Below are positions 1-4,104 of a stretch of DNA of 64,000 nucleotides, one piece after another; position 1 is the first letter of the stretch, and each line of letters begins with the position of its first letter. The position numbers and the translations under genes are program-made. The notes under the pieces are model-generated. The model had not been told where the DNA came from and did no database searches. It was given only the letters and a program-made list of their open reading frames with translations. Location of the stretch: assembly GCA_021469345.1 (NCBI GenBank), contig GCA_021469345.1_3049.1; one strand, given 5' to 3'. Source of the DNA: a phage.

Positions 1-84
1 TCCGGTTATGCAGTTCGCTTTAACTCTCTGACTCCGGAACAGCAGCGCGACGTTATCGCTCGTACCTTTACCGAGAGTTTGTAA
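1..84 (+). CDS. hypothetical protein, 3' end only (vs-region ORF)
   Basis: Open frame enters from window edge (...TPEQQRDVIARTFTESL); stop TAA 82-84 overlaps next ATG. Confidence 0.4.
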   Translation, partial: SGYAVRFNSLTPEQQRDVIARTFTESL

Positions 85-305
85 TGGCAAAGATAATTAT
101 TGAAGGTTCTGAAGATGTGCTAAATGCTTTCGCCGAATGGTTTAGTAATTCAGGCGAACAGCAATTTAACGAAGCATGGAACATGGGTGATATTAATGGA
201 ATTTATCCTACTACAGAAATTTCTGTTCAGGGATATGGCATTCATGAACCTATTCGTTTAGTTGAATACGATTTATGTACTGGTGAGGAAGTCAAATATG
301 ATTGA
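84..305 (+). CDS. hypothetical small protein (vs region)
   Basis: 73-aa ORF, start overlaps upstream stop (TAATG), same strand as neighbours. Confidence 0.5.
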   Translation: MAKIIIEGSEDVLNAFAEWFSNSGEQQFNEAWNMGDINGIYPTTEISVQGYGIHEPIRLVEYDLCTGEEVKYD

Positions 306-564
306 AGATATTAAAGGTTATAAGCCACATACCGACGAAAAAATCGGTAAAGTAAATGCTATTAAAGACGCTGAAGTTCGTTTAGGACTTATCTTTGATG
401 CTTTATACGATGAATTTTGGGAAGCATTTGATAGCTGTGAAGATGATGAACTCGCGAAGAATTACGCCGAAAGCCTCGATCAGTTAACTATTGCTAAAAC
501 GAAACTCAAAGAAGCCAGTATGTGGGCTTGCCGTGCAGTGTTTCAACCAGAGGAAAAATACTAA
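298..564 (+). CDS. hypothetical small protein at the vs.4 position; possible Acb2-like sponge (hypothesis)
   Basis: 88-aa ORF from ATG 298 (ATGA overlap with upstream stop); position relative to regB. Confidence 0.5.
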
Positions 565-842
565 TGGCTCAATTAAGCGCAGGGTTTGGTTATGAGTATT
601 ATACTGCCCCTCGTCGTGTATCTGTTGCTCCTAAGAAAATTCAAAGTCTTGATGACTTCCAGGAAGTAGTTCGTAACGCTTTCCAGGACTATGCACGTTA
701 TCTTAAAGAAGATTCACAGGACTGTCTCGAAGAAGATGAAATTGCTTACTATGAGCAGCGTCTTGAACAGCTCAAAAATCTACATGAGGTTCGTGCAGAA
801 GTTTCAAAGTCTATGAATAAATTGATTAGATTTAAAGAATAA
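564..842 (+). CDS. hypothetical small protein (vs.3 position)
   Basis: 92-aa ORF from ATG 564 with TAATG overlap; precedes regB promoter. Confidence 0.5.
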
Positions 843-843
843 C

Positions 844-873
844 TGTTTACTTTTCCTCTTGACTGTGGTATAA
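844..873 (+). promoter_or_regulatory. early sigma70-type promoter (GTTTAC-N18-TGGTATAAT)
   Basis: GTTTAC 844-849, extended -10 TGgTATAAT 868-873, upstream of regB RBS. Confidence 0.6.
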
Positions 874-901
874 TTTTTCTATCAGTTAAGAGGAGAATAA
901 C

Positions 902-1363
902 ATGACTATCAATACAGAAGTTTTTATCCGTCGAAATAAGCTTCGTCGTCACTTTGAGTCGGAGTTTCGTCAAATTAACAATGAGATTCGTGAGGCATCA
1001 AAAGCAGCAGGGGTCTCATCGTTTCATCTAAAATATTCTCAACATCTTCTTGATCGCGCAATTCAACGGGAGATTGATGAGACATACGTTTTTGAATTAT
1101 TCCATAAAATAAAAGACCATGTTTTAGAAGTTAATGAATTCCTGAGTATGCCTCCGCGTCCTGACATTGACGAGGATTTTATTGATGGGGTTGAATATCG
1201 TCCTGGACGTTTAGAAATCACAGATGGAAATCTTTGGCTTGGATTTACAGTTTGTAAGCCTAATGAGAAGTTCAAAAACCCGTCACTTCAATGCAGGATG
1301 GCAATTATCAATAGTCGTCGTTTACCAGGAAAGGCTTCTAAAGCAGTAATTAAAACTCAATGA
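902..1363 (+). CDS. regB: RegB site-specific endoribonuclease
   Basis: 153 aa, MTINTEVFIRRNKLRRHF..., length and sequence match remembered T4 RegB; RBS AGAGGAG. Confidence 0.9.
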   Translation: MTINTEVFIRRNKLRRHFESEFRQINNEIREASKAAGVSSFHLKYSQHLLDRAIQREIDETYVFELFHKIKDHVLEVNEFLSMPPRPDIDEDFIDGVEYRPGRLEITDGNLWLGFTVCKPNEKFKNPSLQCRMAIINSRRLPGKASKAVIKTQ

Positions 1364-1370
1364 GGTAAGC

Positions 1371-1916
1371 ATGAGAAAAGCACTACTCGCTGGTCTATTG
1401 GCCATTTCAATGATGGCACATAGCTCCGAGCATACTTTCAGTAATGTCCAACTCGATAACATGCGTTACGCATATCAATTCGGGGAACAATTTTCTAAGG
1501 ATGGAAAATATAAAACACATAAAAATATCCACAAGAGCGGATTAGGTCATATAATGGCTGCTATTTTATGGCAAGAAAGCTCTGGCGGAGTTAATTTAAA
1601 ATCTAAACCAAAGCATCACGCTTATGGAATGTTCCAAAATTATTTGCCTACTATGCGAGCAAGAGTTAAGGAACTTGGTTATAATATGACCGATGCTGAA
1701 ATAAAAAGAATGTTGAATAAACGATCCAATTCAGCTTCCTGGGCGTACATTGAACTTTCTTATTGGTTAAATATACATAAGGGCGATATAAGAAAAGCAA
1801 TATCCTCTTATAATTCGGGATGGAATGTTAAAGCTGGTTCTAAATATGCTTCTGAAGTCCTAGAAAAGGCTAATTACCTTAAAAATAATAAACTTTTGGA
1901 AATAGTAAATGACTAA
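1371..1916 (+). CDS. secreted protein Vs.1-like, possible transglycosylase-like fold
   Basis: 181 aa, N-terminal signal peptide MRKALLAGLLAISMMAHS, WQESSGG motif. Confidence 0.65.
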   Translation: MRKALLAGLLAISMMAHSSEHTFSNVQLDNMRYAYQFGEQFSKDGKYKTHKNIHKSGLGHIMAAILWQESSGGVNLKSKPKHHAYGMFQNYLPTMRARVKELGYNMTDAEIKRMLNKRSNSASWAYIELSYWLNIHKGDIRKAISSYNSGWNVKAGSKYASEVLEKANYLKNNKLLEIVND

Positions 1917-2256
1917 AATTTTGGTTTTATGTATAGGATTAATTTCATTTTCTGCTTCTGCGTCAGCAGATACATCATATACTGAAATTAGAGAATATGT
2001 AAACCGCACTGCGGCAGATTATTGTGGGAAAAATAAAGCATGCCAAGCTGAATTTGCACAGAAATTAATATATGCATATAAAGACGGAGAAAGAGATAAA
2101 TCAAGCAGATACAAAAACGATACATTATTAAAACGATATGCTAAAAAGTGGAATACCTTAGAATGTTCAGTTGCGGAGGAGAAAGATAAAGCCGCTTGTC
2201 ATTCAATGGTTGACCGTTTGGTAGATTCTTATAATCGAGGATTGAGTACTAGATGA
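1909..2256 (+). CDS. vs: Vs-like protein (valyl-tRNA synthetase modifier position), secreted
   Basis: 115 aa with signal peptide; position between vs.1 and tk.4 as in T4. Confidence 0.55.
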   Translation: MTKILVLCIGLISFSASASADTSYTEIREYVNRTAADYCGKNKACQAEFAQKLIYAYKDGERDKSSRYKNDTLLKRYAKKWNTLECSVAEEKDKAACHSMVDRLVDSYNRGLSTR

Positions 2257-2732
2257 TTGTAAAATATATCAAGGGCGATATTGTCGCCCTCTTTCTTGAA
2301 GGTAATATTATTGCGCACGGGTGCAATTGTTTTCATACAATGGGCAGTGGTGTAGCTGGTCAATTAGCAAGAGCCTATCCCAAAATTTTAGAAATAGATA
2401 AAACCACTACCGAGTACGGTTCTCGTGATAAATTAGGCGATATGTCTATTGTTTTTAAACATAAACCTAATGGTTTTGGCATATGTTATAACTTGTATAC
2501 GCAATACGAACCAGGTCCTAATCTTGATTATGGTGCTTTAGTAAACTGCATGATAGAATTAAATCTACAGGCAGAAACCCTTTTGTTTAAACCAGTAATT
2601 TACATTCCACGCATAGGTTGTGGTATTGCTGGCGGCGATTGGGATAAGGTTTCTAAATTAATCGACATGTTTACTCCTGATATTGATTTAATAGTGGTGG
2701 ATTATGAAAGTACATTACCCACATCCGTTTGA
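2253..2732 (+). CDS. macro-domain protein (ADP-ribose binding/processing), tk.4-like
   Basis: 159 aa; HGCNCF...MGSGVAGQ resembles macrodomain core. Confidence 0.65.
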   Translation: MIVKYIKGDIVALFLEGNIIAHGCNCFHTMGSGVAGQLARAYPKILEIDKTTTEYGSRDKLGDMSIVFKHKPNGFGICYNLYTQYEPGPNLDYGALVNCMIELNLQAETLLFKPVIYIPRIGCGIAGGDWDKVSKLIDMFTPDIDLIVVDYESTLPTSV

Positions 2733-2916
2733 TCCTAAAAACAAAGTGGAAATTATTCGTCAATGGGAACGCATTTGCCGTACTAAATGCCCAATTAATA
2801 GTCCACATGATGTAGATAAAGACTACATTGGAACATTCGTTGAATATACCTTTATTGATAAGAAAGGTCGTAAACAACATGTAGAAGAATATTGCTTAAA
2901 GGTTACATGGTTATGA
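2704..2916 (+). CDS. hypothetical small protein (tk.3 position)
   Basis: 70-aa ORF, overlaps neighbours at both ends. Confidence 0.45.
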   Translation: MKVHYPHPFDPKNKVEIIRQWERICRTKCPINSPHDVDKDYIGTFVEYTFIDKKGRKQHVEEYCLKVTWL

Positions 2917-3119
2917 GCCAAACTAGTATTCTTAAAAATGCCCATTGTGAAAAGTGTAAGTGGCCGGTTGTTTTTGCTTTATGCAACGATGAAATGGCTT
3001 GTGATTTCGATTATTGGTGCTATTGTTCTAATAAAGGATGTATCAATCATAAAGGTGAAGGATTTTATTCGGGATTTTATCCTTATCCAGATTTCGTTAA
3101 AGAAGGTAAACCAAAATGA
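2913..3119 (+). CDS. Cys-rich small protein (tk.2 position)
   Basis: ATG 2913 with ATGA overlap; CEKCK...CDFDYWCYC...C cysteine clusters. Confidence 0.5.
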   Translation: MSQTSILKNAHCEKCKWPVVFALCNDEMACDFDYWCYCSNKGCINHKGEGFYSGFYPYPDFVKEGKPK

Positions 3120-3289
3120 ATAGTTTTGAGTTACAATACGAAGTGTTACGTGAGCTTGATAATTTAATTGAACTCGCTGTTAATAAAGGTTTTGCCATTG
3201 GAATCGGTCAAAAAGATACTGGTCATTTAACTATGGAAATATTTAAGCAAAAGCGAATTATTTTAAAACTCCTGGAAATTAATATATGA
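3116..3289 (+). CDS. hypothetical small protein (57 aa)
   Basis: ATG 3116 overlaps upstream stop (ATGA), stop overlaps next start; below ORF-track cutoff. Confidence 0.4.
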   Translation: MNSFELQYEVLRELDNLIELAVNKGFAIGIGQKDTGHLTMEIFKQKRIILKLLEINI

Positions 3290-3471
3290 GTCTGAGTAAA
3301 GAACAAAAAGATAAATTGTTTGAGCTTATCCATGAACTTCTAGATGAGCATACAGAAGCAAACACCTTTTATGATGAATACGGCCCGTTATCTCCCGAAC
3401 AGCAGGAAGAATTTGCTGATCGGTTTGATAAGAAAGAAAATGAATTAATAACTTATGTGAATACGCTTTAA
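3286..3471 (+). CDS. hypothetical small acidic protein
   Basis: 61-aa ORF immediately upstream of tk. Confidence 0.5.
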   Translation: MSLSKEQKDKLFELIHELLDEHTEANTFYDEYGPLSPEQQEEFADRFDKKENELITYVNTL

Positions 3472-3480
3472 GAAGGTGAT

Positions 3481-4062
3481 ATGGCGAGTTTAATTTTTAC
3501 TTATGCAGCAATGAATGCTGGAAAATCTGCTTCTCTTTTGACTGCCGCACATAATTATAAAGAACGTGGAATGAGTGTATTAGTTCTTAAACCCGCTATT
3601 GATACTCGCGATTCTGTCTGTGAAGTCGTTTCTCGCATTGGAATTAAGCAGGAAGCGAATATTATTACAGATGATATGGATATTTTCGAGTTCTATAAAT
3701 GGGCTGAAGCACAAAAAGATATTCATTGTGTATTTGTAGATGAAGCTCAGTTTTTAAAAACTGAACAAGTGCATCAATTGAGCCGAATTGTTGATACATA
3801 TAATGTTCCTGTTATGGCTTATGGATTAAGGACTGATTTCGCTGGAAAATTATTTGAAGGTTCTAAAGAACTTTTGGCGATTGCAGATAAACTTATTGAA
3901 CTAAAGGCAGTTTGTCATTGCGGTAAAAAAGCGATTATGACAGCTCGATTAATGGAAGATGGAACACCAGTTAAAGAAGGTAATCAAATCTGTATTGGTG
4001 ATGAAATTTATGTTTCTTTGTGTAGAAAACATTGGAATGAATTAACTAAAAAGCTCGGTTAG
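3481..4062 (+). CDS. tk: thymidine kinase
   Basis: 193 aa; P-loop NAGKSASLL; C-terminal CxxC pairs; matches remembered T4 Tk. Confidence 0.95.
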   Translation: MASLIFTYAAMNAGKSASLLTAAHNYKERGMSVLVLKPAIDTRDSVCEVVSRIGIKQEANIITDDMDIFEFYKWAEAQKDIHCVFVDEAQFLKTEQVHQLSRIVDTYNVPVMAYGLRTDFAGKLFEGSKELLAIADKLIELKAVCHCGKKAIMTARLMEDGTPVKEGNQICIGDEIYVSLCRKHWNELTKKLG

Positions 4063-4071
4063 TGCAAAAGT

Positions 4072-4079
4072 TATAAATA
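4072..4079 (+). promoter_or_regulatory. late promoter core TATAAATA
   Basis: Exact TATAAATA 26 nt upstream of ATG 4105. Confidence 0.5.
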
Positions 4080-4104
4080 GGTTTATCTAACTAAAGGGGT
4101 ATAT

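Follow-up and report, generated by a model that had tools for sequence, protein, structure and literature searches.

Two adjacent early genes of a T4-like phage predicted to encode the immune-nucleotide sponges Acb2 and TadIV-1

Introduction

Upstream of the regB gene in the 64,000-nucleotide stretch of phage DNA analysed here (the window) lie two small open reading frames (ORFs), encoding proteins of 88 and 92 amino acids. Their presence raises the question of what these two proteins are, and of which bacterial defence systems they would be expected to counteract or to provoke. The original prediction had placed both ORFs, by synteny, at the vs.4 and vs.3 positions of T4 and had proposed, from position, that the first of them is the orthologue of vs.4, which encodes Acb2. 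Published work already covers both proteins, including their ligands and structures, and nothing reported below is new to biology; this study adds an assignment for the second ORF and a predicted defence profile of the phage.

Results and discussion

The two genes lie in the early region of a Tequatrovirus distinct from T4

Positions 1–4100 of the window correspond to a T4-like early region, oriented along transcription and beginning with the 3' end of vs.6. All the genes described here are located on the plus strand. The first complete one, vs.5 (84–305), encodes a 73-aa protein of PHROG 1986, a group of unknown function, and is found just upstream of vs.4/acb2 (298–564; ATG at 298, TAA at 562–564; 88 aa). 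This is followed by vs.3/tadIV-1 (564–842; ATG at 564, TAA at 840–842; 92 aa) and by the gene of the endoribonuclease RegB (902–1363), which served as the synteny anchor, as its product matches Pfam PF10715 (REGB_T4) with 231 bits and is identical to T4 RegB at 152 of 153 positions. Further downstream are vs.1 (1371–1916), with an SLT domain, vs (1909–2256), tk.4 (2253–2732), with a macro domain, and, after several small genes, tk (3481–4062). The order vs.6'-vs.5-vs.4-vs.3-regB-vs.1-vs-tk.4...tk is also found in the annotated T4 record when the minus strand is followed, in agreement with the placement of the two ORFs next to regB in the original prediction.

The best phage record for the 1.4 kb around the two genes is that of Escherichia phage BF15, with 99.1% identity at most, and the first 25 kb of the window are approximately 95–96% identical to the best phage records. 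Since neither stretch reaches full identity, the source phage is assigned, from these comparisons, to a Tequatrovirus distinct from T4, and not to T4 itself.

Both vs.4 and vs.3 are genuine genes rather than chance ORFs. In tblastn searches, 1232 phage records contained a match to the 88-aa protein, and 652 contained one to the 92-aa protein. Most of the nucleotide differences between vs.4 and its T4 counterpart fall at third codon positions (16 out of 21), with 13 codons differing synonymously and 5 non-synonymously; in vs.3, three codons differ synonymously and one non-synonymously. The ATG-started frame of vs.3 is nested in a longer, GTG-started ORF (522–842) in the ORF list.

Coupled translation and upstream transcription of the pair

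The stop codon of vs.4 and the start codon of vs.3 have one base in common, the A in the middle of TAATG (562–566), and the start codon of vs.4 is in turn embedded in the final codons of vs.5, the two frames overlapping in ATGATTGA (298–305) up to the end of vs.5 at position 305. In the T4 reference, by contrast, vs.5 carries a frameshift and terminates 36 nt before vs.4. A GAGG Shine-Dalgarno sequence precedes both ATGs at a distance of 9–10 nt (285–288 for vs.4 and 550–553 for vs.3), and regB has a Shine-Dalgarno sequence of its own (GGAG at 892). The overlap between vs.5 and vs.4 is interpreted as translational coupling, and the TAATG arrangement suggests that vs.4 and vs.3 would also be translated as a coupled unit.

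A putative sigma-70-like promoter (TTTACT-17-TATAAT, with a TG), recognised as a consensus match only, is located between vs.3 and regB (846–874) and appears to mark the 3' boundary of the unit that contains the pair. The case for this site is made from its position and not from the number of hits, because the scan of the region gave 8 matches when 8.7 were expected from shuffled sequence. Within the window, the consensus scan found no promoter-like site ahead of vs.4 or vs.3, which makes transcription of the two genes from farther upstream probable. The vs.8 promoter was used by Chen et al. (PMC13243611).

The 88-aa protein is identified as an orthologue of T4 Vs.4 (Acb2)

The 88-aa protein matched over its full length the T4 Vs.4 protein crystallised with cGAMP (PDB 7UQ2; E 4.4e-53), being identical to T4 Vs.4 at 83 of 88 residues (94%). 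It scored 71 bits against the Pfam profile PF24729 (Acb2_Tad1_hairpin), for which the cut-off is 27, with all 58 profile positions covered, and it was assigned to PHROG 717 (E 5.6e-32), the group by which Jenson et al. defined Vs.4 homologues (PMC10097602). A single-sequence AlphaFold2 model (pLDDT 87) consists of a hairpin of two long helices (residues 11–45 and 50–81). When this model was compared with known structures by Foldseek, 7UQ2 was found in first place (E 8e-10, TM 0.74), followed by Acb2 of the Pseudomonas phage PaMx33 (8H2X/8H2J; TM 0.71–0.72), and among the top ranks only Vs.4 and Acb2 structures exceeded a TM of 0.7. In this comparison of a single-sequence model with crystal structures, the rmsd amounts to 5–7 Å because the crystal helix is kinked.

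The window protein shares with PaMx33 Acb2 (8H2J, 8H2X, 8IXZ; PMC10312549) the PF24729 family, the helical hairpin and, by prediction, the mechanism of a dinucleotide sponge. Nevertheless, the two proteins are distant in sequence, with 23–26% identity over the Foldseek alignments and an E value of 0.09, marginal in itself, in a phmmer comparison. The likeness to T4 Vs.4 (7UQ2; PMC10097602) is much closer, and comprises the length of 88 aa, the position between vs.5 and vs.3, and the identity of all the residues that contact cGAMP or form the subunit interface. The match to 7UQ2, the 83 identical residues, the PF24729 score, PHROG 717, the fold and the functional residues described below identify the protein as an orthologue of T4 vs.4, and give substance to a proposal that had been made from position; indeed, the check that came with it, an alignment to the Acb2 family, succeeds with 7UQ2, with PF24729 and with PaMx33 Acb2, and the proposal was not refuted.

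Residues of the cyclic-dinucleotide pocket are retained and a second pocket is probably blocked

T4 Vs.4 is a hexamer that holds three cGAMP molecules with a Kd of about 30 nM (PMC10097602), the reported values ranging from about 30 to 84 nM (PMC10097602, PMC10312549). In this protein, Y8 and F82 engage in pi-stacking, Y8, H11, K23 and R79 make polar contacts, L29, A66, A73 and A77 belong to the interface, and mutations at T12, S74 and A77 cause loss of function (PMC10097602). Every published functional residue was found in the window protein: Y8, H11, T12, K23, L29, F33, L60, A66, A73, S74, A77, R79 and F82. Among them are those of the hexamer interface (L29, F33, A66, A73 and A77) and those of the pocket, namely the base-stacking Tyr8, whose codon TAT is at 319–321, K23 (364–366), R79 (532–534) and F82 (541–543), together with H11 and S74. 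In the alignment with PaMx33 Acb2, Y8 and K23 correspond to the essential residues Y11 and K26 of that protein. On the basis of the 94% identity to T4 Vs.4, we infer that the window allele binds 3',3'-cGAMP and rescues phage from CBASS.

PaMx33 Acb2, a member of the broad-spectrum subgroup (PaMx33/JBD67 type), has a second pocket that involves a kinked helix and in which R67 and T74 serve to bind cyclic trinucleotides as well, whereas T4-Acb2 binds cyclic dinucleotides and not cA3 or cAAG (Cao et al., PMC10312549). In T4-Acb2 the helix is unkinked and is crowded by Y37, A57, L60, D61 and T64, with D61 in place of the essential R67 of PaMx33 (PMC10312549). The window protein likewise lacks this arginine; it has D61 and T68, as in T4-Acb2, and it keeps Y37, A57, L60 and T64 as well. 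Since the residues that block the trinucleotide pocket of T4 are kept, the window Acb2 probably binds cyclic dinucleotides only, and it would be grouped with the T4/CHI14 type.

The Panoptes system is triggered by T4 Acb2 through its binding of the decoy 2',3'-c-di-AMP; the protein is both required and sufficient for this triggering, which is abolished by F82C or Y8A (Sullivan et al., PMC12657218). As the pocket of the window Acb2 is intact, sensitivity is predicted, by analogy with T4, and the protein should expose its phage to the Panoptes decoy system.

The 92-aa protein is identified as an orthologue of T4 Vs.3 (TadIV-1)

Phage mating singled out Vs.3 as the only protein of T4 that inhibits type IV Thoeris, and the name TadIV-1 was given to it (Chen et al. 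2026, PMC13243611). It binds N7-cADPR, the type IV Thoeris signal, with a KD of about 216 nM and releases it intact; its deletion makes T4 sensitive to type IV Thoeris, and it has no clear action on type I or II Thoeris, CBASS or Kongming (PMC13243611). The 92-aa protein of the window is identical to T4 Vs.3 at 91 of 92 residues (99%), is likewise encoded between vs.4 and regB, and belongs to PHROG 2037. The only difference is at residue 64, which is E in the window protein and in the active protein of phage UPEC07 and T in T4 and T2. A full-length match was also obtained with PDB 9WIW, UPEC07 TadIV-1 (E 5.6e-38), and no Pfam family was matched above the cut-off. These matches identify the protein as an orthologue of T4 vs.3, a second characterised sponge that had been missed by the original prediction.

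TadIV-1 is a dimer of two-helix protomers, as seen in the structure of the UPEC07 homologue (9WIW), and its N7-cADPR pocket relies on a disordered N-terminal segment, a view based on truncations, mutants and Boltz2 models and not on a structure (PMC13243611). UPEC07 TadIV-1 is a full-length homologue that likewise adjoins an Acb2 homologue and regB; it differs from the window protein in its length of 101 aa, 9 residues being inserted in the flexible loop near the N-terminus, and in sequence (70–75% identity), and its 32 N-terminal residues are invisible in 9WIW (PMC13243611). Only long homologues (>80 aa) are active, the short ones of about 70 aa being inactive against type IV Thoeris, and mutation of R17, R18 and K24 impairs the function of T4 TadIV-1 (PMC13243611). 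With its 92 aa, the window protein is of the long form. It has R17 and R18 (CGT CGT, 612–617) and K24 (AAG, 633–635), in T4 numbering, within the N-terminal flexible segment (612–635), and its residues 1–24 have no counterpart in the 69-aa homologue of Kosakonia phage 305. From the 99% identity to the T4 protein, the window Vs.3 would be expected to bind N7-cADPR and to protect against type IV Thoeris.

The single-sequence model of Vs.3 has helices at residues 29–50 and 57–91 with low confidence (pLDDT 67, pTM 0.36), and a Foldseek search with this low-confidence model gave no structural match, 9WIW not being among the hits. Nonetheless, the fold of an antiparallel helix pair is very likely present in the C-terminal part of the protein, because residues 24–92 align without gaps to the ordered part of 9WIW.

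A model for two adjacent sponges

The explanation favoured here, to which we assign a probability of about 0.93, is that two neighbouring early genes of a Tequatrovirus, coupled in their translation, each code for a small oligomeric sponge that binds an immune second messenger without degrading it. Orthology, family membership, the fold of Vs.4, the retention of the published functional residues and the gene arrangement are established here, and experiments with the T4, UPEC07 and PaMx33 proteins provide the oligomeric state, ligand binding, protection from CBASS and type IV Thoeris, and liability to Panoptes that are attributed below to the window proteins.

According to this model, the 88-aa helical hairpin of Vs.4 would assemble into a hexamer whose dimer interfaces form three pockets. 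There, the purine bases would be stacked upon by Y8 and F82, while Y8, H11, K23 and R79 would contact 3',3'-cGAMP and other cyclic dinucleotides. Through this sequestration, the CBASS effector would be deprived of its signal. The same protein would also bind 2',3'-c-di-AMP and thereby trigger the Panoptes decoy system. The 92-aa Vs.3 would form a homodimer of two-helix protomers, whose flexible N-terminal segment, with R17, R18 and K24, would sequester N7-cADPR, so that the caspase-like effector of type IV Thoeris would not be activated. Sequestration of an immune nucleotide by a small homo-oligomer, without cleavage, is a feature shared with Tad1, Tad2, Acb4, sequestin and lockin (PMC13243611), which have other folds and other ligands. 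Indeed, no sequence match of the window Vs.4 or Vs.3 to these other sponges was seen in Pfam and PDB, apart from the "Acb2/Tad1 hairpin" name that Vs.4 shares in Pfam.

The phage is thus predicted to resist type IV Thoeris as well as cGAMP-type CBASS of low output, and to be detectable by Panoptes, a profile that would be useful for host-range prediction and for the design of phage therapy.

Conservation of the pair and the surrounding block in relatives

The order acb2-tadIV-1-regB is shared by T4, T2, UPEC07 (Gaprivervirus) and Kosakonia phage 305 (Kanagawavirus), and in all four the two sponge genes abut, with stop and start codon overlapping by one base. The vs.3 homologue of Kosakonia phage 305 is the 69-aa short form, which aligns solely to residues 25–92. 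In Klebsiella phage KP01 (Jiaodavirus), the Acb2 homologue is found directly before regB and vs.3 is missing. In T6, regB adjoins the lysozyme gene e, and the whole block from vs.3 to ipIII is absent. T6 is sensitive to type IV Thoeris, and a T4 segment of roughly 3 kb rescues it (PMC13243611); the absence of the block fits both observations.

A broader reading is that the block from vs.8 to vs.3, ahead of regB, constitutes a dispensable counter-defence cassette, in which the 73-aa Vs.5 would be a further counter-defence protein. We regard this as rather unlikely. Vs.5 gave no Pfam match above the cut-off, and its best PDB hit was at chance level (E 0.045); neither these searches nor its PHROG group pointed to a sponge. 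Two observations touch on this reading. Whereas T6 is devoid of the whole block, other members of the Straboviridae vary in the parts that they retain, have in shortened form or lack; and vs.5, whose last codons overlap the acb2 start here, is frameshifted in the laboratory T4 reference. In a weaker version of the cassette reading, a diverged patch at the hairpin tip of Vs.4 may tune its ligand specificity, for instance away from the Panoptes decoy.

The diverged hairpin tip of Vs.4

Five substitutions separate the window Vs.4 from that of T4 (E13D, L44F, N46S, C50D and F52L), and four of them are concentrated in a patch at the tip of the hairpin (401–500, about codons 35–68). Nucleotide identity to T4 falls there to 86%, compared with 95–100% in the adjacent 100-nt bins between 201 and 1200, and vs.4 as a whole is 92.1% identical to T4, compared with 98.2–98.7% for vs.3 and regB. 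Such a local contrast could suggest that a recombined hairpin tip (F44, S46, D50 and L52) has given the window allele a ligand range shifted from that of T4 Acb2, with, for example, a weaker binding of 2',3'-c-di-AMP, the Panoptes decoy, or a partly opened trinucleotide pocket. In line with this possibility, only a few helical residues separate the patch from Y37 and A57, which are part of the lining of the trinucleotide pocket, occluded in T4-Acb2 (PMC10312549), decoys have been argued to press sponges into tuning their specificity (PMC12657218, PMC12393519), and the allele is common, with 60 phage records at least 99% identical by tblastn.

Nevertheless, a shifted range appears quite improbable. 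Every residue reported to contact dinucleotides or to clash with cA3 is unchanged, and the D61R replacement, by itself, conferred no cA3 binding on T4-Acb2 (PMC10312549). The changes in vs.4 are mostly synonymous (13 codons against 5), which fits the acquisition of an older allele by recombination and not an adaptive change. Moreover, the hairpin tip is generally variable and tolerant of indels in this family: it is both variable and indel-bearing in the Vs.4 homologues of UPEC07 and Kosakonia phage 305, and all five substituted positions vary as well in one or other of these homologues. A T4-like range restricted to dinucleotides is thus the preferred expectation for the window allele.

Natural loss of sponge function in relatives

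The presence of a gene does not ensure that it is functional, and examples of natural loss are known among the closest relatives. The Vs.4 of T2 has a rearranged N-terminus (MKILRD--KPHT) without Y8 and constitutes a natural negative example; this alteration agrees with a remark in PMC12657218. As described above, T6 is devoid of the vs.3-to-ipIII block, and TadIV-1 homologues of the short form have no activity against type IV Thoeris (PMC13243611). It could be proposed on these grounds that one or both of the window genes are present yet functionally decayed, as is thought for T2 acb2. This is very improbable here, since both frames are intact and of full length and every mutationally validated residue is kept. 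Only 5 of 88 and 1 of 92 residues differ from the active T4 proteins, all at variable positions, and the single difference in Vs.3, E64, is the residue of the active UPEC07 protein. Two functional sponges are therefore retained as the preferred reading. Type IV Thoeris nevertheless acts on T2, although the TadIV-1 homologue of this phage is active when expressed from a plasmid (PMC13243611), and an intact tadIV-1 gene is therefore no guarantee of protection.

Annotation of the locus and minor observations

An endoribonuclease function of the 92-aa protein, suggested by the molecule name "Endoribonuclease" of PDB 9WIW and by the same label on UPEC07 QUL77637.1 and on slur phage records, can be practically dismissed, since 9WIW is apo TadIV-1 of UPEC07 according to the data-availability statement (PMC13243611), and the true RegB is the product of the next gene, which alone matches PF10715, Vs.3 being without a Pfam match above the cut-off. 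The label on vs.3 homologues was rejected as an annotation carry-over from the adjoining regB, and it is refuted by PMC13243611. In terms of annotation, two "hypothetical protein" labels, as well as the wrong "endoribonuclease" of vs.3 homologues, can be replaced by experimentally grounded functions: an anti-CBASS cyclic-dinucleotide sponge for vs.4/acb2 and an anti-type IV Thoeris N7-cADPR sponge, in its long (active) form, for vs.3/tadIV-1.

An Rfam scan of positions 1–3000 returned no family at threshold, and a sub-threshold match to a eukaryotic lncRNA model in the same interval was judged to be due to chance. The sole sizeable antisense ORF of the locus is found at 749–973, starts with TTG and encodes 74 aa.

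Allelic variation of vs.4 and vs.5

Nucleotide identity to T4 fell to 86% in window positions 401-500, inside vs.4, compared with 95-100% in the adjoining 100-nt bins. This segment is a mosaic patch within vs.4, and it accounts for four of the five amino acid differences between the Vs.4 (Acb2) proteins of the window and T4, all four located at the tip of the Acb2 hairpin. The window allele was found, at a protein identity of at least 99%, in approximately 60 phage records. T2 vs.4 (L003, PV648363, 941-1201) encodes an 86-aa protein whose N-terminus (MKILRD-KPHT) is devoid of the IKGY motif and thereby of Tyr8, the residue that stacks on the ligand, which is consistent with the published remark that the binding site of T2 Acb2 is disrupted (PMC12657218). 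The adjoining T2 Vs.3 is intact.

Upstream, and overlapping the vs.4 start, vs.5 (84-305, + strand) encodes 73 aa in the window, and T2 carries the same 222-nt form. In the T4 reference (L002, 5382-5558), a 1-nt deletion (window GCCGAATGG versus T4 GCGAGTGG) puts the C-terminus of Vs.5 out of frame, and the annotated protein is therefore just 58 aa long. Vs.5 belongs to PHROG 1986, to which no function is attached, and gave no match in Pfam or the PDB.

Variability and annotation of the acb2-regB interval

The acb2-regB interval is variable among the Straboviridae compared. A long TadIV-1 lies between both genes in T4, T2, UPEC07, and the window, a short 69-aa form devoid of the N-terminal loop occupies the slot in Kosakonia phage 305 (L007, 1232-2226), and the slot is empty in Klebsiella phage KP01 (L006, 1495-2292). 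In T6 (L005, MH550421, 2495-3512), regB is directly followed by the lysozyme gene e, and the whole T4 block comprising vs.3, vs.4, vs.5, vs.6, vs.7, vs.8, denV, ipII, and ipIII is absent; T6 therefore lacks both sponges at the regB locus.

The UPEC07 TadIV-1 homologue (L004, MW250787, 1201-1506) is labeled "endoribonuclease" in GenBank and in PDB 9WIW, and three genes at the vs.3/regB locus are named RegB in some slur-phage records. These labels on TadIV-1 homologues were rejected as annotation carry-over from the adjoining regB.

Upstream of regB, a putative sigma-70-like promoter with an extended -10 element (TTTACT-17-TATAAT, with TG) was recognized by consensus match within window positions 846-900. 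GGAG, the cleavage motif of RegB, occurs at position 892 within regB's own Shine-Dalgarno sequence; vs.4 and vs.3 instead have GAGG as their Shine-Dalgarno sequence, and GGAG is absent from both.

Divergence in the tk.4-tk region

Downstream, identity to T4 drops to about 50-76% in tk.4, which encodes a 159-aa macro-domain protein, and in the small genes located from tk.3 to tk (window 2300-2700 and 2900-3500), between flanks that are 96-100% identical, a pattern that points to a putative replacement of alleles or genes. Matches of the small proteins encoded between tk.3 and tk were to DUF7202, a phage zinc-binding domain, and DUF7438. A GC-rich perfect hairpin, AGGGCGATATTGTCGCCCT, at positions 2271-2291, just inside the tk.4 start, received a terminator-like score on each strand in the scan.
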